DNA of 63,837 bases, filler included, from Octopus bimaculoides (Eukaryota): assembly GCF_001194135.2 (NCBI RefSeq). It is 5 parts of 4 records of this genome, joined end to end, with 100 filler letters (N's around TTAATTAATTAA, not from the genome) between each part and the next. Parts side by side here need not be neighbours in the genome. Positions count along the whole stretch, not along the records: positions 1 to 25,594 come from NC_068992.1; positions 25,695 to 49,771 come from NW_026439247.1; positions 49,872 to 57,854 come from NC_068987.1; positions 57,955 to 62,680 come from NC_068988.1; 1 more part is not named here. The stretch is one strand, 5' to 3'. Below the pieces are notes generated by a model, which did not search any database, was not told the origin of the DNA, and saw nothing but the letters and a program-made list of their open reading frames with translations. The position numbers were made by a program, and so were the translations under genes. Below are positions 15,546 through 59,449 of the stretch, one piece after another; the first letter of the stretch is position 1, and the number at the start of each line of letters is the position of its first letter.

Positions 15546-17680
15546 AAAATGACTAATTATTAATTAATTAATTTTTACTCTATATCTGTATATNNNNNNN
15601 NNNNNNNNNNNNNNNNNNNNNNNNNNNNNNNNNNNNNNNNNNNNNNNNNNNNNNNNNNNNNNNNNNNNNNNNNNNNNNNNNNNNNNNNNNNNNNNNNNNN
15701 NNNNNNNNNNNNNNNNNNNNNNNNNNNNNNNNNNNNNNNNNNNNNNNNNNNNNNNNNNNNNNNNNNNNNNNNNNNNNNNNNNNNNNNNNNNNNNNNNNNN
15801 NNNNNNNNNNNNNNNNNNNNNNNNNNNNNNNNNNNNNNNNNNNNNNNNNNNNNNNNNNNNNNNNNNNNNNNNNNNNNNNNNNNNNNNNNNNNNNNNNNNN
15901 NNNNNNNNNNNNNNNNNNNNNNNNNNNNNNNNNNNNNNNNNNNNNNNNNNNNNNNNNNNNNNNNNNNNNNNNNNNNNNNNNNNNNNNNNNNNNNNNNNNN
16001 NNNNNNNNNNNNNNNNNNNNNNNNNNNNNNNNNNNNNNNNNNNNNNNNNNNNNNNNNNNNNNNNNNNNNNNNNNNNNNNNNNNNNNNNNNNNNNNNNNNN
16101 NNNNNNNNNNNNNNNNNNNNNNNNNNNNNNNNNNNNNNNNNNNNNNNNNNNNNNNNNNNNGTGTATATGGTTCTGCTAATTATAGCTTAATGGTAAAATT
16201 CAAGAGTCTTCGTTTTGGCGCGCTAATTCCAGGAATATGTCTGCAGAAAATATTTGCTGCGTCGAATATATCCAGTATGAGAACTCGGTAAGGGTTAATA
16301 TATTATTAAAAAATAGGGTAAACAATCATATATTAATTAATATCGATTAATTACCAGGAAGCTAGCACATTTAAAGAATCAAAGAGATTCAGAAACAGTA
16401 TCTCAGGGGATTAAAGTACATTTTTATATATGACGTTGACCACTAACGTGGATATTCAATGTGCTAGAAATAGATCACATCTTGTGTCTAATAAGACCTA
16501 AATTGTTCTCAACATGAAATATAGCGTGATATCAAAACATAAGCGGGCAAGACATTTAAGATCACCCCAAAAAATTATTATTAAACAGGGACCGGTTTCA
16601 AAATTGAACAATCTTACCGACTGTCTATTTCTCTTCAGCCTGATTTGTAATGCAACCATAATCATCAGAACCCCATACAAAGTTGAAGTATATATACATT
16701 TATGTGTGTGTGTGTGCATTTATGTGTATATGTGTGTGTGAATCTATTTGGATGTGTGTATGTGTGTATATTTGCGTGTATACGCATGTATATATTTATA
16801 TGTTCATATATGTCTGTAAATATCTCTGGACTCATTTTAAAACACATTCTGATCTTATGGCCATATGTTTTCTGTTCTGGTCTGTCTATTATCTATCAAC
16901 ACTCTTTTCAACCCTTCCCTCCCACCTCCATTGTTTTATCAGCACTCTCACACATACGCACAAAGTATAGCTCCTACTTCTTCTACCCCAACCTGCTCAC
17001 TCCGGCCAAATCTAATCTTGAAAAGCCTTAATGATTCTCTGAATTGTGTTGATATCTTGTTCTCAATGCATTTCTTTTCCCTCTTCTCTCCTTCACTCTT
17101 CGTCTCTCCCTTATCATATATGGATGTGCGAGAATATACATGTACATGCGTGTATGTGTGTTTATATCTCGTCTGACTATACATTTTTACTGATTGAGCT
17201 CTACGCATGCGTATAATCATCAGTAATCACATTTTGTAAAATTAAACTTCTTTAAATTTTGGGACGAGTCCATGGACGTCAGCCCCGACATGTGTGTTTT
17301 CATTGGTACTCCGCTTCTTGTGTATATGTAAAATTGTGTTTTCTCAAATAACTTGCACTTAATGTTTGAGGCTCCGATGAAGCTAAAGGGTATTACTGGG
17401 GCATTCAACTGCAGATCCAACGTATGTTAGCGGAAACAACTGCAAGTAAATAAAGTTCATTAGACAATAGATTATTACTTTGTAATCTCATTCTCTTGTA
17501 TATCCATACATGCACATGCACACGTACACGCGCACACAAACATACGCCCACGTACATATAAATACATATTCACACATACCATAGTAAGCACATAAAATTG
17601 AATCAATGTGGAAAAATGGTACTCGAATACCGGAAGTAGAGTAATACGCTTTATTAATAAAGCTGTAAAGATATCACAGT

Positions 17681-17722
17681 AACTGTTACTCAGAGTTTCA
17701 CGTTCCCGTCCGTCAGAAAGTT
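17681..17722 (-). ncRNA. type-I hammerhead motif, left member of a head-to-head pair
   Basis: Minus strand reads AACTTT-CTGACGG-ACG GGAA CGT-GAA-ACT CTG AGT-A-ACAGTT: stem I 5/6, A9G, GUA site. Confidence 0.65.
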
Positions 17723-17725
17723 TTG

Positions 17726-17765
17726 GTCGTCAAACGAACAGGAACGTTAAACTCTGAGTAACAAC
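17726..17765 (+). ncRNA. degenerate type-I hammerhead motif, right member of the pair
   Basis: GTCGT-CAAACGA-ACA GGAA CGT-TAA-ACT CTG AGT-A-ACAAC: same family as the left member, core mutated. Confidence 0.5.
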
Positions 17766-17835
17766 TTTTGTGATGTCTCTGCACAACATTCCTCCATGGC
17801 AAGATTTAATTTGTGTATACAAATTTAATTTGCGG

Positions 17836-17894
17836 TCGATGAGAAGAGCTGTTTTAACGATGCGTCCTGCCTAGCTCTTCGAAACACCGGTGTT
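17836..17894 (+). ncRNA. hammerhead-like motif with a 10-bp palindromic stem III
   Basis: TCGATGA, perfect stem II GAAGAGCT/AGCTCTTC, GAA, ACACCGGTGT, T. Stem I is not evident. Confidence 0.55.
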
Positions 17895-18540
17895 AAAAAG
17901 GAGGTAGCTGATGAAGTAGAATGTTCTGTATGTGGCTTGTGTGTTTTCTCGTCCCTGTTTTGTTTGCAATGTCCTGTACCCAGATATGCACCTATACATA
18001 CAGGTGGATGTCGGTATGCACATACCTGTACGTATATATGCATATACTCATTTACTATTTGTTTATATATNNNNNNNNNNNNNNNNNNNNNNNNNNNNNN
18101 NNNNNNNNNNNNNNNNNNNNNNNNNNNNNNNNNNNNNNNNNNNNNNNNNNNNNNNNNNNNNNNNNNNNNNNNNNNNNNNNNNNNNNNNNNNNNNNNNNNN
18201 NNNNNNNNNNNNNNNNNNNNNNNNNNNNNNNNNNNNNNNNNNNNNNNNNNNNNNNNNNNNNNNNNNNNNNNNNNNNNNNNNNNNNNNNNNNNNNNNNNNN
18301 NNNNNNNNNNNNNNNNNNNNNNNNNNNNNNNNNNNNNNNNNNNNNNNNNNNNNNNNNNNNNNNNNNNNNNNNNNNNNNNNNNNNNNNNNNNNNNNNNNNN
18401 NNNNNNNNNNNNNNNNNNNNNNNNNNNNNNNNNNNNNNNNNNNNNNNNNNNNNNNNNNNNNNNNNNNNNNNNNNNNNNNNNNNNNNNNNNNNNNNNNNNN
18501 NNNNNNNNNNNNNNNNNNNNNNNNNNNNNNNNNNNNNNNN

Positions 18541-18777
18541 TTCTCGCAGGTGTCGGATTCTGGCTGTTATTTCGTGGTGAACAATTCACACAAATAGGGT
18601 TGAGAAGCTGCGGTTGCTTGTGTACGTGGCGCTAAGCATTTCGCCCGGCGTACTAACGTTTCTGCCACGCCGGGCGAAATGCTTAGCGCCACGTACACAA
18701 GCAACCGCAGCTTCTCAACCCTATTTGTGTGAATTGTTCACCACGAAATAACAGCCAGAATCCGACACCTGCGAGAA
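18541..18777. repeat. perfect 111-bp inverted repeat with 15-nt spacer
   Basis: 18541-18651 is the exact reverse complement of 18667-18777; the centre is a SINE-B head fragment. Confidence 0.95.
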
Positions 18778-21756
18778 ACCATCTGTATCAAGTAGCCCGG
18801 CCCGGCATAGAAGCCTCAACTGCTCGACATGTGACTTAGCACTTCCTCAACGCCTCAACCTCTTATATACAGACTTTCTAAATCTTGTATAACTCTTCAA
18901 CGAAAACATAAAAAACAGACTTAGTCGCAACTCTTTTAAATAAAATAATATATATATATATATTGTACGAAACAATAACACTGATATAATTTGCAATTAC
19001 ACTCTGTTATCTTTGCCGTAAACAAATACAACGCATCGGATAGATATATAAAGTATATATACATGCATACATACATACATACATACATACATACATACAT
19101 GCATACATACATACATACATACGTACGTACAATGATCGGTTTTCTTTTCGTAAACGACGAATAAGAGTTCAGTAAAATAATGCATCAATCATGTTCTATG
19201 GACACGAATGTGTACCTTGAGGCCTGCTTATGCCTTGCAAATTTTTGGCAAATGGAAAAAGTTGATGACTCACTTTGCCTGAGAGCGAAACCACACATTG
19301 GTTTGTGGAGTGGATGCTAAGGCATTCTTTGCACCGGTCCACCAATCCACAGTGATAGGTAAGTTCTCCATCTAGAGGTGCAGCGTTTTCCCATCATGCT
19401 GTTATACTTGCATGAATTTGATCTCCATGTTGGAATCGACTTTGTCCTAATCTTTGAAATGAAGAGAAGCAGGCATAGCCTAACATAATTCAACAATTGA
19501 GCCGTTTCATACGCAAAGACTGCATCTTATATCAAAATACATAAAAGAGAAGGTGGCGTTCTAGAATGTAATAACTCAACAGACTGGGTTATTAAGATTC
19601 TAATATAGTCATACTTTTACAAAGTGGATTTTGATGAAAGGTTATTCTAATTTAATAATGAATTTGAAGCGTGTAGGCAGCTGTCGCAGAACAACGCACA
19701 TATAGACGGTGACACACACATATACACACAACTGCACAAACGCAACTTCACACACACACAGCTACGTGCACATATCATTATGTTTGGGTAGTATTCAAAG
19801 ACACAAAAGTATATTTAACATTTGCATTTTGCTGAGTTCTCAAGGCCAGATATACATAAAGGAGAAGCAATTGAGATTTTTCAAAGAAAATATATAACCT
19901 GCTATTAGTAGTACAAACATGCTATGACTTCATTTGAGTTCGAAAACAATTTTTCACTTCATATTTTTTTCTATTTTCCTAGAAGCTACCTTTAAATGAA
20001 TTAAATATTTTCCTTTGTTATCTTACAACATTTTCAAATATGGTTTTATAAATGGAATTGCACTCATTACACAAGCAAAATGAAATATTTGAAACAATGG
20101 AATATTGAACTATTCCTTAGAACAACCATCATATTTGGTAAGAATGAATATAACGTATCACACATGAAGCAATGTGTGATTGGCATATATTTTAATTATC
20201 CAGAGAAAACGAAAAGCAAAGTAAGTATTACACTTGTAAGAAGTGCCGGAAAGTTTAAGCTGATGTATTCTGTGGAGGTTTAAAATGAAAAAATATAAAA
20301 GAACGCAACACAGTAATATGTTGCTGCATAATTGCTTTTACAATTTAATGTTTTTCTGGGAAACATATAACTGTTAACCTTATTTATTTTTCTCATCTTG
20401 GTGGTCATCAATGTAGAATGAAGTATTAATGAAGAGGAGATAAGCTATACGTGAAACACTTGTATATGTCTCACCTTTCCTCCTTTTTAATACACACCCA
20501 TATATGTATATATAAGCATAAGTGCTCACACACAAAGACATCCACATACAATCACAAACGCACAGACAGACGCACACACAGACGCACACACACACATACA
20601 CATATGTATATTTATATATATACGAGCAACAAAAAAATAATTGGGAAGCCTGGTAGGAAGTTACCTAGAGCAAAGTGAGAGGTGTTACAGTAAAAAAACC
20701 GGAGTAAATAATTGTGACTAATACACTAATTAAGAAATTCCCAATGTGTGTGTATGTGTGTGTATGTGTGTGTGTATGTGTATGTGTGTGTGGGTATGTA
20801 GGTGTGTATTCAAACACACACATGTAAGATAAATATTTATATATATTTTCATTTATCTGTGTATAAATGTATGTGTGTGCGTGTATATGAATGTATGTGT
20901 GCGTGTATACATGTATATGTGTATGTGTAAATGTAATTCTGTATGTATGGGGTGGGGTACATGATGTATGCATGTTTTTATATCCCTAGATATTTGAATT
21001 CTTAAATCTACACATTGTCTATGTGTTAAATGAAAATTCATAATAATCGACACAAAAATTGCATCTCAAAACAATTAAGTGTTGACAAGAAGCAGGAAGA
21101 AGAAGAAGAAGAAGAAGAAGAAGAAGAAGAAGAAGAAGAAGAAGAAGAAGAAGAAGAAGAAGAAGAAGAAGAAGAAGAATCACAGCATCAAATATTATTA
21201 CGGCAACATGAGTAAAAATAACCTTAATAGACGCGAATCAAGAGATAAATTGATGCAAATTAGTGGAGAAAAGCAATGAATCCATCAAATATAAATGAAC
21301 CTTAAATGATACCTTTATGGCTGAAGATGTCAATTTACAACCGGTTCTCTGGAGAGATCGTACCGATTTTTAACACCACACTGAAGGAAATGTTCAACAC
21401 TTCATCGAAATTAATGGCATTCGTTCAAAGTAATTTTCCAAGGCTTCGTGCCAGTAAGTTAGTCCAAACAGATATTTAGAGAACTGATGTAAGTATTACA
21501 GCCTTTCTCTCTGCTTGAAAAATAAGGAAAGATTTAACTCTTCATCCAATAATGCGTTAGTCCTTATTTTCATGCCAATATATTTTTCAATAATGACCAT
21601 TGGGAAGACATTTACAGCAAACTATATAAATCAGAAGTGTATATATATTTGCATACAAAAGCAAACCTAACAACACACGTGCGCGTGCATTGAACTCATT
21701 ATGCTTGAATGTATATATAGTGCATGTATCTCTCTCTCTCTCTCACACTCTATCTC

Positions 21757-21798
<42 letters not shown>

Positions 21799-22364
21799 NN
21801 NNNNNNNNNNNNNNNNNNNNNNNNNNNNNNNNNNNNNNNNNNNNNNNNNNNNNNNNNNNNNNNNNNNNNNNNNNNNNTATATTAAGTATATGATTTAACG
21901 TATTAAACACAGTTCAATAAATTCTTCCATATTTATGTAATGGATGAGATTAGATGTTAAAATGGATTATAGTTTGTATTTCTCATGTTGCTATACAATT
22001 TGTATTATACAAAAAGACTCAGATTTTCATGAGAGAATATCGTAATTGTCATATTTGAACTTGTCAGAGGCTGGTATAAAAACAAAGAAAGAACGTCGGA
22101 AGTACATTATCGTATTGGATTAATGTATTCGGTCTCGCAGTCATGCCTATTTGAATCAAGACTAAGAAATATATAAGTGGGCGCTAATATATGTAATATT
22201 ATAAGCTGACATTCTCTCTATGAATTCCTATATGTGTGTCTATTTAGATCTCCTTAAATTAATTATATTACTGGAGTGTCTGTATTTGTATGTACGACGA
22301 GGAATCCAAATAAGGATGTGAATGAATTTTCAAATAAAAGTTTAGTTTTGCTTAAATGTCACAA

Positions 22365-22455
22365 GATCTCAAAAGGCGAAGTCGAGCTCGGCAGAAATTG
22401 AACTCCACGGACGAAACACTGCTAAGCATTCAGCCCGGCGTGCTAACGGTTCTGC
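22365..22455 (-). mobile_element. SINE family B, 5' fragment
   Basis: GGCAGAAATTGAACTC..GCTAAGCATTCAGCCCGGCGTGCTAACGGTTCTGCC. Confidence 0.65.
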
Positions 22456-23049
22456 CAACTCACCACCGATTTTCTGTTCTTTCCACATAGTGATAGACAT
22501 TTCAGATTGAATAACTTACGAGCCACGAATAGGTAATTTTCTTGAGCGTGTGACAAGAAAATGTGTGGTATTAATGGAAAACAGATTTTGGGTTCAAATC
22601 TTGCCAGGCTAGACCTTGCCGTTATTTATTTTCTAATTCATAACAATGTGCTTGAATCAAGAATTGATGACGATTTTAAGTATTTCTGCATATTAAATAA
22701 GCAACTGAAAACTTTCTGTGTCAAGATTTTGAAGGAAATAGAAAATTTAACGTAGATCTATAGCCTGCGAACTATTATAAAGATTAGAAAGGAAAGAAAT
22801 GCACGTCAATGATATACGGAACTCAGGATTTCACACTTTCATAAAGGAAAAGGTGACTGACTGAATTTCAAGCGAAATATGGATTATAAGACTTGTTGCA
22901 TCAGGTAATTAATCTAAATTTAGCGCTAGAGAACCAGCGACCGATGTATAAAAAATACAAGTGGAGACATGTTATTGTTTATTAATTAAAATTATTGGCT
23001 GAGTCTAAATTGATGCTTAATTGCTCCTTAGTTAATACTTAAATATTAT

Positions 23050-23268
23050 GGCAGAGAGCTGGCAGAATCGTTAGCATGCCGGGATAAATACTTAACGGTA
23101 TTTCGTCTGTCTTTACGATCTGAGTTCAAATTCCGCCAAGGTCGACTTTGCCTTTCATCCTTTCGGAGTCGATAAATATAGTACCACTTGCATACTGCGG
23201 TCGATCAGATCGACTGGCTCCCCCCCCCCAAAAAAAAAATTTCGGACCTTGTGCCTAGAGTAGAAGAG
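23050..23268 (+). mobile_element. SINE family B with 16-bp TSD
   Basis: TSD AATACTTAAATATTAT at 23034-23049 and 23269-23284; B-box GAGTTCAAATTCC. Confidence 0.88.
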
Positions 23269-25186: not shown

Positions 25187-25239
<53 letters not shown>

Positions 25240-27932: not shown

Positions 27933-28087
27933 TATTCATGATTAAAACTGTCAAAGAAAAAATATGCCGTATTGTTCATTTTGAGCTCTCAAACAGTATT
28001 AATCTCCCCCAACAGTGGGTCATTTGAATCACTTTTGGAAATATTATGTTAGAAGTTATTACTTAGGAAAGTTGAGTTTGTTATCAG

Positions 28088-28782
28088 ATTGTAGCAAGTC
28101 ATAAAAGGCGGCAATATGATGTAATGGTCGTTTGCCCGAACAAGCATAATTGTTGGTAATCCCATTGGTTAAAATTCCTACCCATTGGTTAAAATTACTG
28201 TCAAAGAGAATTCTTTCACAAAATACGGTTCTTAGAATAAACAAATTCATGTTCTTTTAACTGCTATAAAAAAATACACAGTTTCATAATTGCAGAAAGA
28301 AATTTCATTAGCAAGTTGAAAAACGTGAAGAAAGAGAAAATAATTACTACATTATTTTATTTATGTACATTTAGCATTTATAGTCCAATTGGAAAGTAAA
28401 GTCATTTTGTCATAGAGAATTACGACTTAAAATTCACACTAACTAATCCTTCATACTAACTACTAGAGTTCACAACAATTCAAATAAGTCTTGTTGGATT
28501 TTTATCATAGACATGGCATAAAAAATCGCCAATATCTCAATGAATGAGTGTCATAGAGTTTAGTAACATCCTACGATCACTGAGTAATTTCCCCCAAAAT
28601 CAGGGGTTTTATAACTGCTCATATCCGAATTCTAAGAATTGTATTCCGTGAAAGATTTCTTTGATGAAAGTTTAGAATTTGTATATGGGCAGCAATTTTA
28701 ACCAATGGGATTACCAACAATTATGCTTGTTTGGGCAAATGACCATTACATCATATTTCTGCCTTTTATGACTTGCTACAAT
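28088..28782. mobile_element. foldback element with approximately 150-bp inverted arms
   Basis: 28088-28176 pairs with 28694-28782 at about 90% identity; weaker pairing extends to about 28240/28627. Confidence 0.75.
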
Positions 28783-29096
28783 ATCTTTAAAACTCAGTTG
28801 TATTAACTTTCTATAGAGTGGTTGAGTAGATAAATGAAAGAGAAAACAATAGAGATATTGCTGGATCATGTCTTTACATACATTGTTATGTTGGTGGTTA
28901 TAAAATATTTAAATCTTCAATGACCCAGTCTGCATAGTTGTGTGTCATACAATATAAGAAATTTACCTCTCTCAAATGCTGCTATAGCACTATAAAATTA
29001 AAGAAATTTTTATTAACTTGTTGTGCTGTGATAGGTTCAATTTCTCATATGGCCCTGAGAAAGACTTATCAATATTAATCCATAGATTTTAGGCAA

Positions 29097-33655: not shown

Positions 33656-33763
33656 NNNNNNNNNNCTTTACAGGTTGTTATACCGAGTTAACGTGATACA
33701 TTTTGAGAATATATGGATAATAACAACAAATGGAACAAAACGCATGTCGATGAAAGTTCCTTT

Positions 33764-33853
33764 AATTCCTACATATGTTTCGAAACAAGTGAGGGTCATT
33801 TCGCAAAGAAGAAAGGGCTGCTGGAGACCTCATTTATTTCTCATCAGGGAGTT
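33764..33853 (-). ncRNA. type-I hammerhead ribozyme motif with intact core
   Basis: AACTCC-CTGATGA-GAAATAAATGAGG..CCTCACTTGTTTC-GAA-ACATATGT-A-GGAATT: stem I 5/6, 13-bp stem II, palindromic stem III, GUA site. Confidence 0.8.
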
Positions 33854-34396
33854 CATAATAAAACATGTAATAGCAAGACAAAAACGAAATGATGGGGTAA
33901 CTTACGAGCTGAGATGTTACATGGTCAGTGACCGTTAGAAGGTTTGTTTACATAGAGTTACGACGGGGTCAACGATATTATTCCATGGGCTTTAGGAATA
34001 AGAACGCTAGTTTACATAGAAATATAAAGGGAGGGTGTTTTTGATGTGATGCTAAAGGTTGAGGTCAAAGAGTTATTTGGGTATGGGGAGATAATTATAG
34101 TGAATATTTACATATGTGTTTGCTAGCGCACAGACACATATGTACAAACACGTGCGTGTACGCACATACACACATACATATGCGCACACCCATGTACACA
34201 TACCCGCACACCCACATACACCCATACACATACACACATCCATACAGAAACCTTCACATGTACATATGTACATACATGCTCACCTATACATACGTGCCTG
34301 TATATATACCTACATTCCTGTATATATACAAACATGCAAATACCCACACCCGCACACACATACATACGTATACATGCACATACACACACACCTACA

Positions 34397-34479
34397 TGAT
34401 GAGAAATAAATGAGGACTCCAACAGCTCTTTCTTCTTTGTGAAATGGCCCTCACTTGTTTCGAAACATATGTAGGAATT
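34397..34479 (+). ncRNA. 5'-truncated inverted copy of the same hammerhead
   Basis: TGATGA-GAAATAAATGAGG..CCTCACTTGTTTC-GAA-ACATATGT-A-GGAATT; C3 and the 5' strand of stem I are replaced by (CA)-rich sequence. Confidence 0.65.
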
Positions 34480-35663
34480 AAAGGAACTTTCATCGACATG
34501 CGTTTTGCTCCATTTGTTGTTATTATACATATATATATGAACAGCAGGTTGCAATAGTTCAACAAAAGGAAGAAGAAGAATAATTGTCATTAAATGTGAT
34601 CAAGGTGTTAAGAAACATCTATATTGCTAAAAATAGGAGTTAAATGCTCTAATACTGTAGCTAACATATATATCAAGGACTCTCCTCTCGTTAGACGACG
34701 TATGAGGGTTTGGCAATTTCTTGCCAAACAACCACACAGATGATTTGTTTATAATGATCAAATGTTTGTATAGACATAAGCTCACTCCCTCCATCAAGTA
34801 CAGATGATGAAATGAATGCCACATGTCAGATGATGAAATGAAGTGCTTTGCTCTAGAACACAACACAACATCTGGTCTGGGAATCGATCCCATGGTGTTG
34901 CAATCGTCCGTCTGTTTTTTTTAAAGCAATAGGATATGATTTGATGGAACTTCAGTTGCTGGTTAATTTATTGTATAGATGTTTCTTTGCTTGTTGGTTA
35001 GCCCAAAATTAGATCTCATTGAACAGACCTATGGTAAAATGCTTTCCGTTCTTAACTGTCCGTTCCTTTTGTATGCGAAGAACTACAGTGTCCAGTTTGT
35101 CCATCCAAGTTTATAATTGTAAGATATGCTTTTTGCAACCTTTGAAATTTGTAGAAATCGTTAACTGTAAGAATTTATATGATAATGTTTGAAATTATTA
35201 TATTACAAATTATTTACAATGATGTATATGTAATTGAAATGATAACAAAACGATTGTTTTCTTTCATTTTACACTCTTTCTCACTCATTTGTTCCCTTTA
35301 TTTATGTATCTATCTAGGTCTGTGCGATCTTTCGACATTGGTTCTTCTCTTTCTCTTCATCTTCCTTCACATTCTAGTTTCAAACTGGAATAAGACAAAC
35401 AAATTGACACAAGAGACAAAATTATGCATTGAAATGAATTTGGTAGGAAAAATATTTAGAAGAAAGCAATGAATAAGTACGATAACAATGGTGATTCATA
35501 CATACAGACATACATATTGCTGTTGTCAGCCAATAAAGTGAAGGGGACATTTGTGTCAATGTACAATTATGTGTATCTATGGGAGTATACATATGTATCT
35601 GGCTGTATGATGTATGTCTGTGTCTAGTTACAAAATGATTCAGAAATAAATAGTAGCAAATGA

Positions 35664-38444: not shown

Positions 38445-41400
38445 TCATTCATTCATTCATGGTGGCTGTCTACTCCTTATGCAGAGTTTGACCACCTCCT
38501 GTACCTATACCTTAGATCCATCATGGCATCTGATTGGCTTTTTAAACCAGATAATGTTCTCCTGTATAAATTGGGGTCAAAGGATCTGTGTAGTAATTTT
38601 CCATATAGATTGCACATCCGATTTGGACCACCAATACCTGCAGATAAGTTCTGATCTTTGTGGATCTTAAAATGTCTTTTGAGATGGCTCTTTACAAATC
38701 ATTTGTCTTACCATCCCTGTTGTATTCTTATGAAATGTGGACTTGCGAACCTTTTGGCATACGTAGCATTCAAAGGTGTGCACACACATATAGGTAGAAT
38801 AGTTGGTGGAGGTTCGTTTTCCATGGGTTCGCAAATGAGATCTGAGCCCAGAAAAAGAAAGGCATCGTCTGTCACAAACTGTTCACACAAAAAGGTCATT
38901 GTGATTCACCTTCTCGATTGTAACATTTTTCCTTAAATCTCCTTTGAGTCTTGCATGTGTTATCCTGGCCTCTTCAAATGCTTTCACTCCACTCCACACT
39001 TTTGTTTGCCATCTAGCTCGATTCGAAGCAAGGGTTTCTATGTCTTCTGAATTCATTCTAAGTGGCTTTATAGTAGTCCTTACGCTGTCCTTAAATCTTT
39101 TTTTAGGTTTATGCCGATAGCGTTTCCCCTCTGCAAGCTCACCATTAAACAGCTGTTTGAGCATACGTTCATCCACCATCTGCAGATGCAGATTTAATGT
39201 TTAAAATACAATGAAGGCATTTTTGGTTGAATTGTTCTAACAATTTAAAATGCCTTTCATAACAAGTCCACATTTCACAAGAATACAACAGGGATGGTAA
39301 GACAAATGATTTGTCAAGAGCCATCTTTGTATCATTTATATGTCACTGGCACAAAACGTGTGACTCCAAGCCACCAAATGCTTTTGCTGCCCTTTGAATT
39401 CGCAGCTGTATTTCTGTATCAAGGTTTCCATCCTTTTGTACAGAGCTTCCAAGGTAGATGAAAGAATCGACAACCTCAAGTAACTTTCCCTTAACAAAAA
39501 TTTTAGCAGGGTTACAAACTGCACCACACGCAGGTTGATGCATTACAACTGTTTTTTTCAAGTTGATGGTCAAGCCAAAATCATCACAAGCCGAGTCAAA
39601 TGCAGATACAAGAGATTGCAGACCTGTTTCAGAATGACTGACAAGATCACAATCGTCAGCGTATAAAAGTTCCTTAATGAGTGAAGTAAAACCTTTGTTT
39701 TGAATTTCAGTCTGGTCAGATTAAAAACATTCTCTGTTGTTCGATATTTTATGTAAATACCCTCCTCAGAGTTTTGGAAAGCATGTGACAATGCAACAGC
39801 AAAATATATTGCAAAGAGGGTGGATGCATGACGGTCTCCTTGCTTTACTCCATTTTCCACAGCAAAAGATTCAGAGAGCCTCCTATCAAAGTTAACTCTA
39901 GCTTTCATATCTTGATGCAAAACCCTGATCATGTTTACAAATTTTTTTGGGGGCGGCAACCTATTTTCCTTAGAATTAGCCACAGAGCATTTCGATTAAC
40001 AGTATCAAATGCTTTGCTCAAATCAACAAAGCAATGGTATAGAGCAAGATTCTGTTCAATGCACTTCTCTTGCAATTGTCTGATAGTAAAGTTACAATCA
40101 GCTGTGCCTCTGGAGGAACAAAAACCACACTGAGACTCAGACACTATATTTGGAACTATGAAGGTATTTAAACGTTCTAATAAAATGTGGGCAAGTACCT
40201 TTCCAATCACAGACAAAAGCGAAATCCAACGAAAATTACTACACAGATCCTTTGGCCCCAATTTATACAAGAGACTAAAATGGCATCGGTCCAGTCTCGA
40301 GGCACTTTCTTGAGGTCTCCAACAGTGACAAATTAATATATTTAAGAATTCAAACATATTGTCACCCCCATATTTCAAGACTTCTGCACAGATTCCATCA
40401 GAACCCGGAGACTTATTGTTATTCAGCTTATTCATAGCTAAATAAATGTCATTTAGAGTTGGTTCATATCCAATCTCTTCTATAATTGGAAGATGTTCGA
40501 TTTTTTTCATCTTCCTCATGTCGGCGGATGATGGTCTATTCAAAAGTGCAGAAAAGTGGTTTACCTACGTCAGTCAGAAGCAAACATCCATTTGCTGTTC
40601 TCACTGGCGCTATTGAAGGTGATTTTGGGCCATATACCCCCTTAATATGAGAGTACAAACCTTTGGCATCATTTCTATCAGCTGCTTCTTGTGCCCCTTT
40701 TGCTCTATCATTCTACCATTCCTGTTTAATTTTCCTTAGAGCTTCATTTGAATTGGGGTTCAAGAACTGAGAAAGAAGTGTATTGCCTAAGTTTTGATTT
40801 TTTAAAAGTAGTTCATGAATTTCTGCTGATCTATCTGAGAACCAGTCACCTGACTTATGTGATTCAAATCCCATTGGATGAAATTGGAGCCTGAAATACT
40901 TTTGTTTTGAAATCTTCCCATAGATTGTTTGGGTCAAGATTGATACTTTCTATAGCATCGTGGAATCTTTGCAAGTTGCTTGATAATTTGAAGTCTGTAA
41001 CTTTTAACTTTTTGGGTACCTTAAGACCAGACAGTCGATTTCTAGGCATTATCGAAAAGTTTATTTTTCCACGCACTAGATGATAGTCAGTCCAGCTCTC
41101 TGCTCCTCTCATGGCTCAAACGCTAGAAACGTCTTTCATATCACGTTTTCTGATCAAAATATAATCTACGAGATGCCAGTGCTTAGATCTTATGTGCATC
41201 CAGGTAGTTTTATATTTATTTTTCTGCTTAAACAGAATGTTGGTGACAACCAGATTATTCTCAGTACAAAACGTCAAAGAGCTACTCCATTTTTATTACA
41301 TTTTCCAATCCCATGTCGACCTAAGACAGGCCATGAAACGTAGTCCTCTCCAATATGACCAGTTTGTCAGAAATTGGTACTTTCCTCAATAATTGTGCTA

Positions 41401-42260
41401 GATCATCATAAAACTGTCCTACAGTTTCATCAGAATGGGACATTCTGACAATGGTAAGAAACCTACCTTTGTCAGTGTAATATGGCATGACATGGTTCAT
41501 TCAGATATACCACTTGGAAGTTCTGCAATGGAGGATTCTAATGAATTCTTGAGAGCAAACCCAACACCAGATTCTCTATGCTGACCCTTAGGCAGGCCTC
41601 TCCAAAAGATAGTATATCCATAAGCAGATTCCATTACTTGACCCTCACCAGAGAGACGAGTTTCAGAGAGCGCAACTATATCAAGGAAATATTTCTTAAG
41701 CTCACATGCAATAAGTGCAGTACGCCTTTCTGGCCTCTTGTTGAAATTATCATCGAGAAGTGTGCGCACATTCCAACAGCCAAAATTCAAAGGATGTTTA
41801 TATTTACTTTTTCTTTAAGAATGTTTGACTATAGTGGCAGGATGATGACTGGGCCCAGCCTGTGATACACTGGAACACCTGCCGAACCAGACCTGTTCCC
41901 CTGATGTTCCCAAGCCTTTTCTGCCATTTACTGAATCTGTTTGAGACATTTTAGAGCAAGTTAGAAGTGCATTTTTAGGTTTCTGCCAACCAACCAATTG
42001 AATGATTTTACTAAGATCTGGTGTACAGGAAGTAACTGTGCAAATGAATAATTTTCAATGGGTGTAGCTTGCACTGCACTACCCACACCCACCTATTGGC
42101 CCAAGAAGATTTTTGCCGGTGTGACAAAACCAGAAACCTCCAAGGCATCAGGTTTTATTTCAGAGATTTCCTGCTCCTAGGTAGACTACCAACCAAGGTC
42201 AAAGAGATTCTACCTGCCCATGAAGTAAGCTATCCCATTCCAGACATCAAACCTTTACTC
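38445..42260 (-). mobile_element. near full-length RTE (BovB-like) LINE, inactivated
   Basis: Endonuclease FGCWNVRTLLD..DIVALSETR; RT FVDLSKAFDTVNR, GVKQG, LYADD (about 39655); C-terminal CDRRCLSFSGLRSHLRTH; (TGAA)n tail; frameshifts and one deletion. Confidence 0.92.
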
Positions 42261-45742: not shown

Positions 45743-46189
45743 GTAATAACTATATAATTATTATTGCTATTGTTGTCATTGTTTCATTTCAAGGCTATAT
45801 CTTTGTCTTCACAAAATAAATGTGGGCCACTGTGAAGATGGTGGCGGTGGTGGTGGAAGTAGTAGTAGTTGTTGCTGTTGTTGTTTTTGCTGCTGCTTCA
45901 TCATCATAAATGTATGAACATTTGCAATGGCGGATGTTGAGTTTTGTATTCAGAGTCAACCTTGCTCAATTTTGTGGTTCATAGATAGTCTCTGTCAAAC
46001 AAACAAGGTACATTCCACAAATCTAGTGTTCTAGAAACATTGCCTTCCCTTAGTGGAATGACATACTACACATTCTGTCAGAAAAAAATAAATCCGAAAG
46101 AGAAGCAGTAGAGTTATAGAGTAATAGAATAATTAGATAACAGGTTCCATGTCCATAAAGCACTATATATGGGTAGAGGCAAATCACAT

Positions 46190-46395
46190 CCATACTACCC
46201 ACTACACAACCAGTAATTATAGACTGTCCTACTTTCTCTCACAGGTATTACGACCTCTCATAGAAATGTCCCCAGATGTCTGTGTTAGCATGGAAGATCT
46301 CCTCAGTAAAATCAGTACTTGCAACCGCTCTAATGACCTTACAGGTTGTGTAGTGGGTAGTATGGATGTGATTTCACTCTATCCATCTATAGATA
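46190..46395 (+). mobile_element. Penelope-like element RT fragment
   Basis: SNYRLSYFLSQVLRPL...VVGSMDVISLYPSID (SxDVxSLYPSI RT motif typical of PLEs); ends in a microsatellite and gap. Confidence 0.7.
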
Positions 46396-47930: not shown

Positions 47931-48940
47931 GAGAGAAATGTGCCTTGTATTTAATGATTCTGCAAAGAAAAAGGCTTGGAGAAGCCGTTATGAAAGACTG
48001 CTGAATGTGGAGAATGAATAGGAGGAGTAGAGTCTGCCAAAGTTTGACCCAATTGAGGGACCAGCTATCCGAAATGACAGTGCACAGGTAGATAAAGCAA
48101 TTAAGGATATGAAAACAGGGAAAGCATGGCCCATCAGGAATCACTACTGGGATGCTTAAAATATCGAGTGGTGTGGGTTATGATCTTGTCACCCGCATCG
48201 TAAATCAGGTAGTTCACGACGGAGTCATACTCAGTGAATGGTGTAGTAGCACCATCGTCAACTGCTCCAAGGAGAAAGGTGATATTTTAGATAGAAATAA
48301 CTACAGGTGTATCAAATTATTGGATCAGGTGATGAAAGTTACAAAGAGGGTCATAGCCCAACTAATTAGGGAGAGAGTTAACCTAGATGCGATGCAGTTC
48401 GGTTTTGTGCCAAGTAGAAGCACCACTGGTGCTATATTTCTGGTAAAGCAACCACAGGAGAAATACCTAGCCAAAGATAAACCTTTGTACTTGGATTTTG
48501 TTGACTTGGAGAAAGCCTTTGACAGGGTCCCCCGATCCCTTATCTGGTGGTCAATATGGAAACTGGGGATAGACGAGTGGCTGGTAAGAGCTGTACAAGC
48601 CCTGTACAGGGATGCTGTCAATAAGGTGAGGGTTGGCAACGAGTATAGTGAAGAATTCTGAGTAGAAGTAGGGGTTCACTAAGGATCAGTCCTCAGCCCC
48701 CTCTTATTCATTATAGTCCTCCAGGCAATAACAGGAATTCGAGACAGGCTGCTCTTGGGAGCTCCTCCATGTTGATGACCTTGCTCTAATAGCCGAGTCA
48801 CTGCCAGAACTGGAGACGAAGTTTAGGGTGTGGAAGCAAGGTCTAGAATCAAAAGGCCTTAGGGTTTACTTTACCAAAACCAAAGTCTTAGTAAATAGGA
48901 AGGCTGTCAAATCACAACCCCCTGCTCGATCTGTAGAAAA
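47930..48940 (+). mobile_element. RTE LINE reverse-transcriptase fragment
   Basis: QFGFVPSRSTTGAIF..FVDLEKAFDRVPR..GSVLSPLLF..HVDDLALIAES; stops and frameshift. Confidence 0.88.
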
Positions 48941-49422
48941 GGCATGGGTAGAAACTCCATAGTATAGGATATTCCGTCATCATGGAAAAATGGGGAAAAT
49001 GAGAATGGTATATATCAATGAGATGACGACAAAGAAGAAGGAAGTAAAAGAATAAGGAGATCTCATAATTGGGGATATTCTGGAAACAGCTGTAAGACTT
49101 TGAATTTTTTTTTGCCAATAATAATATTCTATATGACTTCAGATGTTTGCCTTGCCTTGATATTTGTTGTCCTCTTTAACAATTATATATCCGCTGCATC
49201 GGAAATCTGCAATGGCTCCATGGCTACTGTCTCAGCTATAATCTTAGAGCCCTAGTAATCTGTTACAGTACTTACCTAGCGAGCCTAATTGGTTAGATCA
49301 CCTGTGAACTAAACCCCCATAGTTTGTATATATATTCATATATATATACACATGTAAATAAAGTATAAGGAAAGGAAAAATTGTACGTGTAGACAATTTT
49401 TAATTCATAATCCAGGTTAGTA

Positions 49423-49480
49423 CATACTACAAATTGTTTCGGAGTCTAATTAATTCCAAAGACAAAACTCATCTTGTAAT
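49423..49480 (-). ncRNA. strongly degenerate hammerhead-like motif
   Basis: ATTAC-AAGATGA-..GTCT..AGACTCC-GAA-ACAATTTGT-A-GTATG; core C3/U4 mutated, partial stems. Confidence 0.3.
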
Positions 49481-49771: not shown

Positions 49772-49871
49772 NNNNNNNNNNNNNNNNNNNNNNNNNNNNN
49801 NNNNNNNNNNNNNNNTTAATTAATTAANNNNNNNNNNNNNNNNNNNNNNNNNNNNNNNNNNNNNNNNNNNN

Positions 49872-52429: not shown

Positions 52430-52960
52430 TAATTGGTAGTGAAGTGGGTAATTGTGGTGATTGCAGCAACTGAAAGAATGATAACGATAAAGGCGATGGC
52501 GATGATGATGATAGTAATTGTGATGTTTGTTGAAGCACAGTGGTGATGTGCATGCTTAATAGTGGTTGCAGTGCTTATGACAATGATGGTTGTGGTACTA
52601 GTAGTAGAGATGGTAATAAAGTTAACAATGAGGATGATGACACCCCAGCCCCCATCCTATCCTGCTACCCTCAAGGTAATGATACTGACAATGGTGCTGA
52701 TGGTTATGGTAACGGTGATCAAAGTGGTGATGATTATAATGGTAATAACTGTAATGATGATAACAGCACTGTTCATGGTTATGATAATGTTGATGACTAT
52801 AGTGATAGCTATAATAATGGCCATAGTACTGATGAAGATGATAGTGATGATGATAACTATAATGATGATTATGATGATGATGATGATGACGACAGTGGTA
52901 ATGACACCAAACACTGTTGATGCTGACATCAGTGCAGATTTATCAGTGTCGCAGATTTAT
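52430..52960. repeat. degenerate (GAT/AAT/GGT)n low-complexity tract
   Basis: Trinucleotide periodicity, with ORFs open in several frames on both strands. Confidence 0.7.
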
Positions 52961-55109
52961 CAGTGTTGCAGATAGGTAGGCCATAATGTATATGCTGCTA
53001 TTTCGTTTTTGTTTTCTTTTTTCTTACTGTTGCTTTTGCATGAAGAATTTCGGGCCTACAACCAAATCATGTGTGCAGGTCACACATGCTGCACAAAACA
53101 GCTGGCCTGCACTTTCTGCATCTGTGGTTAGAACTTGCAACATCCCAACACCAACCATCCCAAACAAACAAACGATATTTCATTTAGTTGTAGTGGTGTC
53201 GGTAGAGGTGGTGCCAGAGGTATTAGTAATAGCAATGACAAAAGTAGCAATGGTGGAATAGCAGTAGCCATAGCAGCAGTAGTAGGTAATGGTAACTGAG
53301 GAAGGGAATGGGGAGGATTTAGCTATTTATTCTAGCAGCTTCAATGAGCATGTAGAAGCTCCCTCTTGGCTAATAACACTAGTGATGGTAAACGAGGATT
53401 AGTCATTGAGGTGATGGTGATGGTGGTACAGTTGTTGGGGCTAGTAGTAAGTGTAGCAACTTCTTTAATACATAAAGAGACTTTCACAGTTAAAGAGACT
53501 GATTCCTTGACCAAAAAGCCCAACAGGAAGTAATATGGACCTCAGTGGGAATTGAACCCAGAAAGGAACAGTAAGACAATGCACTAGACAGTGCAAAACA
53601 TCTCCTTACTCTTACACCAGAGATCAGTAACCCTTTTTTATTTTACATTTTGCCTATGGCCCACATGGATATGATAACATATCTTACAAAGTATCGCCAT
53701 GTATCCCCCTCGTTACTGCCATCACTGGCAAAGCTCATGTAAGCGAATTAGTCAGAACTCCTGCTCTGCCTTATATGGTTACTCAGCTTGCAAGAAATGA
53801 CAGCAGAATCTTCTTTCAATCATACACTATCATTTTTAAAAAATGGATAGTGATCATGGATGCAACTGCTTTGATCATGGATCTGCTTAAGCAGGGTTGG
53901 CTTAGGGCCATACAAGACTGAGTGGTCAACCTCAGAATGCCTTTGATTGTAGGTCTACTTGATGTGGTTGTTCTTTGATAAACAACAACCTTCTACATCA
54001 GTGATTTCTGAAGTTTTTTTTTTTTTCAGGATCAGAGGAACTTTCAAAGGAGTAACAATAAACCCAATACTTCCACAGGAATATCTTCAGTCATAAACAC
54101 ACATCCCAAAATCACCCCTCCCTCCTAAACCCGTTGTTTCCCTGGTGAACTAGCAACTATTTCACGATGTATTACTTTATACAGTGCAGACCCAGAGGGA
54201 AAATTACAGAAAATTACAGAAAATTAAGATGAAAAAAAAAAAATAAAATGAAATGAAAGAAAATATCAGGAAATGAAAAAAATATGTTTAAAAACTGAAG
54301 GGAAAATAAGAAAAATCAAAAGAAAATAACAGAAATTCAAGTAAATTCATCAGAAAATTGAGCAAAATGTAAACAATAAATGGAATGAAGGGGGAGAAAA
54401 TGAGTTCAAGAAATGAAGAGAAATAAAAAGGGGAGGAAAATATTTAAAGAGAAATATGAAATAAGATAAATTGAAAAAGAAAAAAGAAAAAAAGAAAAAA
54501 TCAAAACAAGTGAATCTGGTGAAATATTTTGCTGAAAAATGTTGAAAAGTTCACTGCACAAGAAAATGTCAATGAAACATCTCCCACTCCACCTGCTACA
54601 AGTGCCAGTCATGAAACAGACCTAACCTCACCTAACCTCAAATGCTTGCAGTGAACAAGGAGGAACAAGTGTTTCAGTAAAGGTTATTCAATTGTTCTGT
54701 CAAGATGGCAGGTTAGATGAGATAATCGACATTTCACTTCTGATGGTGGGGTCTCATAAGTTTGTTGTCTGTCAAATTCTCATAAGACAGAAGGCCAGTA
54801 AGCAAGTGATTGGCTAGGGACTCATCCTTCTTTCATGCAATGTAGTGTTAAGTAGGAGATAAAAATGCTTCCAACCAAATAGCAAATGCTTAATTTAAAT
54901 ATTCTGTGGAGAACACCTGAGGCCTGTTTTTGACTATTGAAGATGCAATATTAGCCACACATCCCCCACCCCACACCAAAATCCTTACATGCAGTTATCA
55001 ATATTAACAAAGCATTGCTGCTGTCTCTCTGCTGTGTATTTATAAACAAAATACTAAACAGTCTCCCTCACAAATAATGGCCGGGTTGCCAAATCTATAT
55101 AAAGCACAA

Positions 55110-55340
55110 TGACATCATCATCATCAAGTAACGTCTGTTTTCCATGCTGGCATGGGTTAGATGATTTGACAAGAGCTCATCAGCTGGAGGGCTGCCCGGG
55201 CTCCATGTCTGTTTTGACATGGTTTCTACAGCTGGATGCCCTTCCTCATGCTAACCACTTTACAGAGTCTACTGGATCCTTTTATGCAGTACCAGCATGA
55301 GTGCATTTATGAGATACTGGCACAGGTGCTTTTTACATGG
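55110..55340 (-). mobile_element. RTE 3'-UTR copy
   Basis: (CAT)n-AACGTCTGTTTTCCATGCTGGCATGGG..CTACAGCTGGATGCCCTTCC. Confidence 0.7.
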
Positions 55341-55554
55341 TACTGGCACCCATGAGCCTGTAAGATTAGGAATGCTCAGCTGAAGAGGGATGCAGGGGAC
55401 ATGTCCGTATGTAAGGATGACCAAAGTTTCTGAAACAGCGTATTACAAGGATGTCTTTTCACTCATTCTTTAAAAAATAATTGCATGATTTTTACCCGCA
55501 GAGCAAAAATTTCTCATGCAAGTTGCTTCAGTTGTCTCTTACACTGTATCATTT

Positions 55555-55922
55555 GAACATGATTGTTACCAGCGTCACCTTATTGGCACTTGTGCTGGTG
55601 GCATGTGAACAAAACAGTCAAGCGAGGTCGTTGCCAGTGCCGCTGGACTGGCTCCTGTGCAGGTGGCATGTAAAAACAAAAACCATTTGAGCGTGACCAT
55701 TGCCAGTACTGCCAGACTGGCCCTCATGCCGGTGGCACGTAAAAGCACCCACTACACTCTCGGAGTGGTTGGCATTAGGAAAGGCATCCAGCTGTAGAAA
55801 CGTTGCCAGATCAGATTGGAGCCTGGTGCAGCCATCTGGTTCACCAATCCGCAGTTAAAATCATCCAACCTATGCTAGCATGGAAAGCGACCGTTAAACG
55901 ATGATGATGATGATGATGATGA
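55555..55922 (+). mobile_element. RTE 3'-UTR copy with (GAT)n tail
   Basis: Colinear with 49872-50115. Further decayed copies lie at 56080-56270 (+) and 56430-56640 (-). Confidence 0.8.
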
Positions 55923-57607
55923 CATCTGTAATCCTATATCAACCATCAAGAAACGTAATTGCAAATAAACACACTAAGAGTAGCACATACCTAATACACA
56001 ATCTCCTCCTTACCAGCAACACCAAATAACATCAGATATAATCAATTACCACAATTTTCTTTGTGATCTCACTAGTACTGGTGGCATGAAAAAAAGCACC
56101 CAAAACACACTGTAAGATGGCTGGCATTAGGAAGGGTATCCAGCCATAGAAATTATGCCTAAGCTGACACCAGAGTTTGGTGCAGCCCTACAGCTCACTG
56201 GATCTAATGAAAAACCATCCAACCCATGTCAACATGGAAAACGGACATTAAATGATGATGATGATGATGCACACGTGAAAATCTGGGTAATTACATAGAA
56301 CATTCATAGGACATGTAAAAGCCACAGAAAATTAAGCAAAATGGCACAAACATACTCAGAGCATTCACAGGCAGTAGTACATTTTGCCAGCAGAAAATTA
56401 CAACACTAGTGTATCATCATTGTCATCAACAACATTATCATTTTTCACCTACTTTCCATGTTGGAATGTGTTGGACAGGTTGTCATGATTTAAGTTAATT
56501 CTTATTTGAAAATATGGTGTGCATGGGGAACCATATTTCACCCACTCACTTTATTTTGGCATGGTTTCTATGACTGCCAAACACCAACCACTTTGCAAGG
56601 CGTAGTGGATGCATTTTATTAAGGCACCATCACTAGAGAGGTTGTCCTGTCCTTGACAGGAATAAAGGCTCCTCCCAAACCTACAATTCTCTACTTATTT
56701 GCCAATTACCTTGCAGTATGCATTGGATGCATTTTGTCATGGTATCAACACTGGAGAGGTAGTCATGACTTCAACAAAACAAGACTTGCAAAACAGAAAG
56801 GAATCTTCCATGTATTGCATTGTCTTTGCTTGTTCTATGATTGATGTATTATAATTAGATTTGTCTTGTAAAACTCCCCTACTGAATAAAGACATTTCTA
56901 CAACAACCCTAGAACACGGCAACACCACCATCCTAAAAACACTATTCCTCCACTCACTCCAAATAAATATAAACACATGCACACAAACATAGAAGCATTA
57001 TTGGCAACTATGACTTGAGAGCCTCTGCTTGGTCACTTACTTAATCTGGTAGAAAAAGCAGCTAAATTCCATTCAAACAACATCCTGCCATCTTAAAATA
57101 GGAAGGATACTATTTGCATAAAAGTACTGATGCATTGTCTGAAAATAAATTGGAATGGATCATAGCTAGAATGCTTTAATCATAGGTTTGCCCAATCCGT
57201 ATTCAGCTGATCTTAAATAAGAACAACTACAGCATTTTCCCCAAAATAAGACTTCACTGGAATGCACATCATCAAATGATAAGTGAAAGTATCAACAACC
57301 ATGTAAATTTGCCAACCAGATCAGATCCTAATGACATACAAGAACAGACTGGAGAGAGGGAAGACAGAGAGGCAGACATTCCATGACTGCTACCCTGCAC
57401 TTTATTATATGGTAAGTCACAATTTGGTTGTTTATAATAGGATTCTCCAACCATCAGATAGCAGACCAGTACTGGGCCATGGCATATTTGGTACTGGGTT
57501 GCACAGAAAAAAAAAAAATTTTTAATTTCAATTTCATTTTATTGACTATCAAAGTCTGCAGGGTGTCTCTATGTTATATATGTATTACATATGTAACATG
57601 TTTATAT

Positions 57608-57647
<40 letters not shown>

Positions 57648-58125
57648 GGAGGTTATGAGCGGTAGTGGTGTCAACGAGACCCAAAGGTGTCAGGTAATGC
57701 TGAGTAAATGCTATGGATAGACCATAGTTAAGCTCCAGGTTCAGTGGTTATGAGCATAAGGGGTCCAACGTAGGTCATATATCAGCGTGTGTATATAGAA
57801 CATTTATAAATGTTCTAAAATCTACACAGCCTTGTTTTTTTTTTTTTATCTCATNNNNNNNNNNNNNNNNNNNNNNNNNNNNNNNNNNNNNNNNNNNNTT
57901 AATTAATTAANNNNNNNNNNNNNNNNNNNNNNNNNNNNNNNNNNNNNNNNNNNNTATATATACCGGTATGAATGCTTAGATACATATATACATGTGTGTG
58001 TCTGTGTGAGTGTCTTTTGCGTGTACAGGAATGTATATATGCGTCTTTGTCTGTTTCTACGTTTACCGGTATTTGTATATGCGTATGGCAATGTGTATAT
58101 ATAGTATTGATAGTTAGATAGCTAG

Positions 58126-58200
<75 letters not shown>

Positions 58201-59092
58201 GGAATACATAGATGTATTTATATATTTATTTATAGATCGATTGACAGGGAGATATGAATCTATGTATATTCCATATTATTTTGATTAAAATTTTCCTGTA
58301 AGAAACGTGCTGAGCTGTAAGTAAGCTGAAATGTTTCATTGCATGAAGATTTACATGTGCGTATGTGCGTGTATATGTATATGTGCATGTATCTATATAT
58401 TCATAATACATTTTTTTAAAAATTCCGACGTCCATATCTGTGAGAACATGAATCTTTCAATTTTATAACGCGATTTCGTACGTTTAGTATCAAATTTTAC
58501 TCCTGTTATTATCCATTTCAAACTCAAAGCGACGTGCTGTCACCTTTGTAGGCATGTGAGATAAAATGCTGCCAGACATAGTCCACGATTTTACGTTCTT
58601 AATGTTAAATTTCGTCGAGGTTGGTATTATATTTTTGTCTTTTCTTGTCGATATTTCTGTCTTTTGCGTCGATTACGTCGACTCCAACTCCGCACTGAAA
58701 TGAATGTAATCAATAAGTCCCTTTCCCTAAAATTTCAGACGCGTATTTGAAAGGATTATCCATATGAAAATCGATATTCAGAATGTTTGTAAGTACCAAT
58801 TATTTCAAAATAGACTTCGACTATTTTTATTCAATTGAAGATAAATTTCGGTAAATATATATATATATANNNNNNNNNNNNNNNNNNNNNNNNNNNNNNN
58901 NNNNNNNNNNNNNNNNNNNNNNNNNNNNNNNNNNNNNNNNNNNNNNCGCAGCCACTTGGCTGAAACACATAAATGAACATATATAGATATATATATTAAT
59001 AGAAAGGATAACAAAAGAAAGAAAGTGACTTCGATATTACGTAAATAGAGGAATTTATCTGTAAAAATATGTGACACTTATTCAGTACCCAT

Positions 59093-59153
59093 GATAAAAC
59101 TCCGAGTCTCGTATGCCGGGGTGGGAACCCGCGCCAACATCTCTTCAGTTATC
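59093..59153 (-). ncRNA. type-I hammerhead motif, left member of a palindromic pair
   Basis: GATAA-CTGAAGA-GATGTTGG..CCGGCATAC-GAG(A14G)-ACT CGG AGT-T-TTATC. Confidence 0.7.
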
Positions 59154-59198
59154 CGGTCATTGAAAATGGTCAGTTTTCACAGGAAATTTCAATGGCCA

Positions 59199-59259
59199 GA
59201 TAACTGAAGAAATGGCGGCATGGATTCCCACCCCGGCATCCGAAACTCGGAGTTTTATC
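59199..59259 (+). ncRNA. type-I hammerhead motif with intact core, right member of the pair
   Basis: GATAA-CTGAAGA-AATGGCGG..CCGGCATCC-GAA-ACT CGG AGT-T-TTATC: perfect 5-bp stem I, GUU site, imperfect base of stem II. Confidence 0.78.
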
Positions 59260-59449
59260 GTGGCTACCGAATAAGTGTCACATATTTGTGAATATATATA
59301 TAAGGTCTCTCGAACATGTAGAGTAAAATGCTCGTTATTTAATTGATGAGACGTATATAGAATCTTTCCCATGTAAAATGGTAAGAAATACCAACGTCCC
59401 GACCTGCATCCCTTTCAGTTTTATCAACTAAATACTAGTACATAATCCT

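Follow-up and report, generated by a model that had tools for sequence, protein, structure and literature searches.

The window analysed here is a stretch of 63,837 nt of Octopus bimaculoides DNA (assembly GCF_001194135.2; filler between joined parts included), microsatellite-rich animal sequence with 4,250 N. It holds three inverted repeats (IR1, IR2 and IR3) whose arms carry type-I hammerhead ribozyme motifs, several solo motifs, and a reverse transcriptase (RT) open reading frame (ORF) fragment of a Penelope-like element (PLE), as collected in Table 1. Each pair of arms very probably records one PLE insertion, in which a 5'-truncated direct copy and an inverted copy were joined head-to-head and have been decaying since. 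The architecture is likely one already known, the pairs being new instances of ordinary PLE inverted-end insertions.

Inverted repeats in the window

Self-comparison of the window recovers the three inverted repeats where the original prediction had placed them, with the 5' ends of the motifs facing each other in every unit. It agrees as well that the units are unrelated: self-BLAST finds no significant similarity between them, and the best alignment of one inverted repeat to another is equalled by 11 of 200 shuffles. Arms are truncated unequally at their 5' ends, by sequence comparison in IR1 and IR2 and also in IR3, and those of IR1 and IR3 abut directly. The window's four PLE-related pairs (the fourth being the RT pair described below) are all head-to-head, none tail-to-tail, and (TA)n lies at or beside at least one side of IR2, IR3 and the RT pair, less clearly for IR1. 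No direct repeat of any unit is found in the window by self-comparison. The non-repetitive stretch at 33852..34110 is likely the IR2 element's own upstream part.

Table 1. Positions of the inverted repeats, hammerhead motifs and RT fragment along the window
Feature	Position	Strand	Description
IR1 arms	17664-17713 / 17734-17783		40/50 identical (80%)
IR1 left arm	17664..17727	-	one core change (A9); C3 at 17716; predicted cut after 17687; decayed
IR1 right arm	17734..17783	+	begins inside or at mutated core; three core changes; helix I absent; predicted dead
IR2 arms	33709-33851 / 34392-34534		134/143 identical (94%)
IR2 left arm	33709..33851	-	core intact (0 changes); C3 at 33847; predicted cut after 33770
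Non-repetitive stretch 5' of IR2 left arm	33852..34110	-	protein match to PLEs not above chance
CA/TA-rich microsatellite-like DNA within IR2 spacer	34111..34396	.	sequence reading
IR2 right arm	34397..34534	+	5'-truncated at core U4; one core change; ends in (TA)n
IR3 arms	59053-59165 / 59187-59299		95/113 identical (84%)
IR3 left arm	58998..59165	-	inverted 5'-truncated copy; C3 at 59148; one core change (GAAA box); (TA)n end
IR3 right arm and spacer	59166..59287	+	core intact (0 changes); C3 at 59204; predicted cut after 59254
PLE RT ORF fragment	46209..46392	+	through first catalytic Asp motif; ends in (TA)n
Inverted shorter copy of RT fragment 3' end	46163..46216	-	49/54 identical; head-to-head; no ribozyme
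Solo decayed minimal hammerhead	297..330	+	two core changes; core read by eye, helix II folded
Intact solo type-I hammerhead	16590..16638	-	helix I 4 bp, II 5 bp, III 3 bp and palindromic
Solo hammerhead-like motif	17836..17894	+	helix II 9 bp, palindromic helix III 5 bp; two core changes; no helix I
Doubtful solo motif	49420..49475	-	two core changes, weak helix II; by eye, outside descriptor matches
Solo minimal hammerhead	63591..63617	+	one core change (A6); helix I 5 bp, II 4 bp

Hammerhead motifs and their decay

Motifs were scored on the 12 conserved letters of the hammerhead core (CUGANGA, GAAA and UH). A strict descriptor, requiring all 12 core letters, a helix I of at least 3 bp and a fully palindromic helix III of at least 3 bp, gives three matches in the window (IR2 left at 33847-, IR3 right at 59204+ and the solo motif at 16638-) where 300 local shuffles give 0.02 on average; type-I hammerhead motifs thus occur here beyond chance. 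Looser descriptors, allowing two or three core changes, perform at or near chance (5 matches where 12 shuffles gave 1-7, and 45 where they gave 22-43).

That every unit should carry a hammerhead on both strands, as first proposed, holds for the individual motifs in part (two of the six paired motifs are intact) but for no pair as a whole, since in none of the three are both members intact. Helix III is palindromic in all six, IR1 left and IR3 right among them. Helix I pairs at 5 of 6 positions in IR1 left and spans 5 bp in each arm of IR3; IR2 left has helices I, II and III of 3, 7 and 4 bp, and in IR2 right C3 and the 5' strand of helix I are replaced by microsatellite DNA, leaving no helix I. 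Only in IR3 do both arms cover the whole motif. Core changes amount to 6 of 72 letters, against a per-arm divergence of 5.3% (binomial p = 0.28); decay of the cores is thus in line with the neutral divergence of the arms, and nothing points to maintenance of the pairs. In the IR3 family, helix II (59204-59245) pairs best with one extra base between it and the GAAA box, the usual hammerhead arrangement having an unpaired base on the 5' side of helix II instead; core position 7 is variable among family copies.

Read-through RNA is predicted to form a hairpin of -147 kcal/mol, and the pair probabilities of the ribozyme helices fall to 0.00 in the whole unit vs. 0.4-1.0 in an isolated arm. The competition between hairpin and ribozyme that had been anticipated thus holds under equilibrium folding, where it would point to silenced ribozymes, not a switch. 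Folding z-scores of single arms are mostly unremarkable, 9 of 10 lying above -2.

Copy structure of the IR3 family

Contigs of four of the 23 listed runs (X1, X2, X5 and X23, the last possibly from RNA) were mapped on 58930-59435 at 80% likeness. In X1 the summed depth per bin is 1.5e5-1.6e6 over the arms, 1.6e4 in the centre bin and 51.5 in the unique right flank (a value from X1 only, the other three runs having no cover there). X2, X5 and X23 have the same dip at the IR3 centre, and single-position depth by the junction is 49-94 in one table and 750-910 in another. Summed contig depth is not copy number; as a rough inference, the contrast implies thousands of IR3-family copies.

What these copies share is the arm sequence and not the IR3 centre. 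At 59167 and 59174, loose ends mark where family copies pass into their own upstream sequence and not across the centre. The 21-nt spacer is therefore an extension of the right arm on its 5' side, and a shorter inverted copy makes up the left arm. The arms start 17 nt (left) and about 38 nt (right) before C3. The family runs about 65 nt further 3' on the left-arm side, to about 59000, while the right arm breaks off at 59287, where family members commonly end. Copies terminating at 59286/59066 or at 59056 are numerous, and their flanks there are AT-rich or TA. The 3' tail is on one IR3 end only, as seen both in family depth and in pieces that continue from the hammerhead into 59010-59065 on the left alone. 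With alternative, asymmetric ends and an unshared centre, IR3 does not have the structure of a miniature inverted-repeat transposable element or other fold-back DNA transposon.

Contigs joining left to right arm sequence are the mark of other head-to-head loci. Twelve such joints are found among the 15 listed in a first table (15 of 70), six of the twelve recurring in two runs, and a further seven come from a second (12 of 42 rows listed). All of these head-to-head joints, at least 19 as listed, differ in position, and their depth of 35-163 is near single-copy. The whole hammerhead is present on both arms in 0 of the 19 listed; one has the whole right arm once the intervening letters are counted. 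(A joint starting exactly at the predicted cut, 59255, was considered as a signal, but 1 of 19 listed is not significant with about 90 possible positions.) Variable junctions and one-off units were among the outcomes that the original prediction had set against itself, and in the IR3 family, where the point was tested, variable junctions near single-copy depth and a centre that is not multi-copy are what is seen.

At 59108 the letter found in the majority of the family makes the GAAA box complete again, and therefore it is the window's IR3 left copy that has decayed; variation in the family is dominated by C>T and G>A, as expected of decaying copies. No match came from exact-motif searches of contigs from metagenomes, prokaryotes and viruses, or from BLAST against phages, so that the sampling of families covers IR3. 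A further high-copy repeat stub at 58947-58980, which contains a GAAAC motif, follows directly on an N gap; it runs into the same (TA)n as the IR3 tail and may be the 3' half of another pLTR (pseudo-long terminal repeat).

A ribozyme-free pair in the reverse transcriptase fragment

The PLE RT fragment expected near 46190 is present at about 46209-46394. It is 90% identical to a predicted protein of Octopus vulgaris, and 63% and 56% identical over its length to two relatives (P0003 and P0004) with ORFs of 788 and 982 residues, which combine RT with C-terminal GIY-YIG-type motifs read by eye. Assignment to the PLEs is thus by similarity and by motifs read by eye; Pfam recognises neither the fragment nor the GIY-YIG domain of the relatives, one of which has a weak RT match only. 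A 24-residue tblastn match of the IR2 arms to a GIY-YIG region (E 3.3 and 5.7) was set aside as being at chance level.

The fragment is itself one arm of a pair: a minus-strand copy repeats its last 54 nt, the two overlap by about 8 nt, and both stop at the same base. As this pair (46163-46392) is ribozyme-free, the head-to-head layout needs no ribozyme. Its arms break off midway through the RT ORF, a long way from a normal pLTR end and at a short palindrome rich in TA; the stop point suggests priming at an internal site.

Relation to known elements

The link to PLEs and their inverted pLTR copies drawn in the original prediction is supported by published descriptions. Craig et al. (2021, PMC8557442) describe PLE insertions as truncated at the 5' end, where a second copy, inverted and likewise 5'-truncated, is often present; one end has a tail, and microsatellites are favoured as targets. 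They treat the origin of the inverted ends as still open. The account of Arkhipova et al. (2013, PMC3846280) gives head-to-head as the arrangement most often observed in PLEs and proposes self-priming; inverted pLTRs are called a routine PLE peculiarity in PMC8969392. The window pairs resemble the endonuclease-bearing insertions of these reports (PMC8557442, figure 2; PMC3846280) in the inverted 5'-truncated copy that adjoins the direct copy's 5' end, and likewise in the one-ended tail, the microsatellite targets and the hammerhead near the 3' end. They differ in that their arms are very short and without an ORF, and in the IR3 tail of about 65 nt vs. 30-40.

Dual hammerheads on opposite strands, about 100-700 bp apart, are reported from Schistosoma mansoni by Cervera and De la Pena (2014, PMC4209133), who attribute them to truncated PLEs; the architecture of the window pairs has therefore been described before. 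The metazoan PLE hammerheads presented there share with ours a short helix I, a long helix II and a palindromic helix III, and they too fall into many unrelated families per genome, mostly solo; ours come from another host and other families, and their helix III palindromes reach 4-5 bp. Non-LTR retrozymes (Cervera and De la Pena 2020, PMC7229834) are likewise non-coding, PLE-related and high-copy, with a type-I hammerhead, but they are described as tandem arrays in direct orientation, every unit having its own ribozyme, that give circular RNAs (PMC7229834; bioRxiv 10.64898/2026.07.22.740005), whereas in the window the copies of a pair are inverted and each strand has a single motif.

A biochemical parallel is offered by PAc, the Poseidon PLE of Anolis, reported by Frangieh et al. 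(2024, PMC11167929) to nick and extend both strands at AT-rich DNA, its RT starting on uncleaved RNA at two internal sites downstream of the hammerhead, with cleavage not needed. The window arms, which end at alternative points 25-100 nt beyond the cut site, fit this picture. The PAc work as presented is in vitro, with an intact element, and leaves the inversion itself unexplained, whereas the window units are known from their sequence alone.

Among cephalopods, Penelope is given as an abundant repeat class in coleoid genomes (PMC8967140), and 235 hammerhead 1 loci are listed for the giant squid (PMC6962438). Our literature search, with most subscription papers and Repbase/Dfam outside its reach, turned up no catalogue of octopus PLE hammerheads, and no paper on a head-to-head hammerhead retrozyme unit with motifs on opposite strands. 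The supplements of PMC8557442, which include cephalopod PLE families, may already hold these sequences.

Proposed mechanism

A PLE RT with a GIY-YIG endonuclease would nick AT-rich or (TA)n DNA and start cDNA slightly downstream of the hammerhead, with RNA as its template; that RNA would be uncleaved, because all arms run through the predicted cut site. Two cDNA tracts, one made at each DNA end or one of them by fold-back or self-priming, would both stop early and be joined 5' to 5' via short microhomology. Because only 25-100 nt lie between the hammerhead and the 3' end of the element, it would often be included in both arms, and the two-ribozyme pair would be a by-product. Read-through RNA is then predicted to fold into a long hairpin in which neither ribozyme forms, and the copies would decay as dead DNA. 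Of the two arms of IR3, the shorter one has the longer tail. This speaks mildly for two priming events and against an origin of one arm as a copy of the other; trimming by the endonuclease could be an alternative cause of this asymmetry.

Short copies apparently number many thousands in the octopus genome, with many independent head-to-head junctions. A genome-wide map of these could separate two-ended from fold-back priming and could show whether 5' ends pile up at the cut site. The findings also suggest that octopus hammerhead families are numerous and are missed by Rfam.

Alternative explanations

Several points weigh against single inverted-end insertions as the source of the pairs. The copy structure speaks for one family of the three; the sides of its joints are only 24-37 nt long, the IR3 reference shows only junctions inside its own arms, and long two-ribozyme pairs are under-sampled. 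None of the contigs listed bridges IR3's own centre with 31 nt per side. No target-site duplication, an optional feature of PLEs, could be read by eye in the flanks, which are obscured by (TA)n and assembly gaps, and none of the three hammerhead families has an RT/GIY-YIG ORF beside it in the window. The Rfam hammerhead models match neither the window (searched at E<=5) nor three short stretches (searched at E<=10), a result that lowers the hammerhead claim little because the minimal PLE motifs of PMC4209133 were found with custom descriptors. (The Rfam matches obtained are microsatellite- or hairpin-driven miRNA look-alikes below gathering scores, and were discarded as chance.) Finally, about 290 nt of CA/TA-rich microsatellite DNA separate the arms of IR2, a gap that two separate insertions could have left.

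This last point gives an opening for an origin of the pairs, IR2 above all, in two independent and opposite insertions of one abundant family in the same microsatellite patch, given that PLEs are described as favouring microsatellites (PMC8557442) and that the IR3 family is very abundant. We nevertheless regard such an origin as very unlikely: the arms of IR1 and IR3 abut directly, those of IR2 are 94% identical, and the orientation of the four pairs is head-to-head throughout. The gappy assembly, the unbridged IR3 centre and a perfect 111-nt inverted repeat abutting a gap at 18541-18777 could make all of these repeats assembly or library fold-back artefacts, but arms that differ by 6-20%, mostly by transitions, are not what a fold-back would yield, and joints that recur in two runs make an artefact extremely improbable.

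Another reading, which follows that of the original prediction, takes the units as discrete, non-autonomous palindromes that are transcribed and then put back into the genome entire by PLE RT, their hairpin acting as a regulator of two ribozymes of opposite polarity. The presence of three units in 64 kb, the short spacers of IR1 and IR3 and the very stable hairpin are in keeping with this proposal, which is nonetheless very unlikely and finds no support here: the IR3 centre is not multi-copy and family junctions vary, no pair is doubly intact and decay is at the neutral level, and an RT fragment without a ribozyme has the same layout. There is a correspondingly slim chance that the IR1 or the IR2 family spreads as a whole two-ribozyme hairpin, carried in trans by PLE RT; were this so, its double-stranded RNA would turn both ribozymes off and could enter octopus pathways of small RNA or of A-to-I (adenosine-to-inosine) editing. 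As for the suggested likeness to viroid-like RNAs, motifs on both strands that pair in a rod-like fold do recall the symmetric viroid-like circles of bioRxiv 10.1101/2022.07.19.500677, in which ribozymes of both polarities are described on a unit-length RNA. A likeness in function is not supported, however, with no doubly intact pair and an IR3 unit that is not conserved whole. With one motif per strand no unit-length circle could be excised; moreover, the arms copy one sequence, their cores have decayed, no unit is tandem and junctions vary within the family, so that genomic copies of a viroid-like or retroviroid-like circular RNA are scarcely credible as a source. Inverted-end PLE insertion is the reading we retain.

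Solo motifs and other features

Four solo hammerheads had also been predicted. Those at 63591 and 297 stand, the one good and the other recognisable, that at 17836 is partial, and that at 49423 is doubtful; the intact solo at 16590..16638 was absent from the prediction, and a second CUGANGA box lies at 16668, 30 nt upstream of it. A tRNA-like short interspersed element (SINE) head with an (AAT)n tail occupies 198-350 on the minus strand, with an 87% match to 15442-15513; it is head-to-head with the solo hammerhead at 297, the two possibly forming a composite element. ARAGORN found no tRNA, the SINE head included.

Pfam recognised no host gene among the 45 ORFs scanned (from 216 listed, plus the RT fragment); matches at or near cut-off in this set are pieces of RT and endonuclease of the long interspersed element (LINE) type only. 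The perfect inverted repeat at 18541-18777 (arms 100% identical, 15-nt spacer, beside an N gap) is likely an assembly or library fold-back, or else a very recent event. Another inverted repeat, at 28073-28796, has 166-nt arms 83% identical around a 390-nt AT-rich interior, with no hammerhead found. An element of about 840 nt at 10461-11299 has terminal inverted repeats 77% identical, and its translations look by eye, with no support from Pfam, like a decayed piece of a Tc1/mariner transposase. A broken LINE with RVT_1 and endonuclease Pfam matches lies on the minus strand at 38558-41814, with short inverted pieces (38558-38601 and 38682-38745) near its left end, and a further RVT_1 piece is found at 48113-48658.

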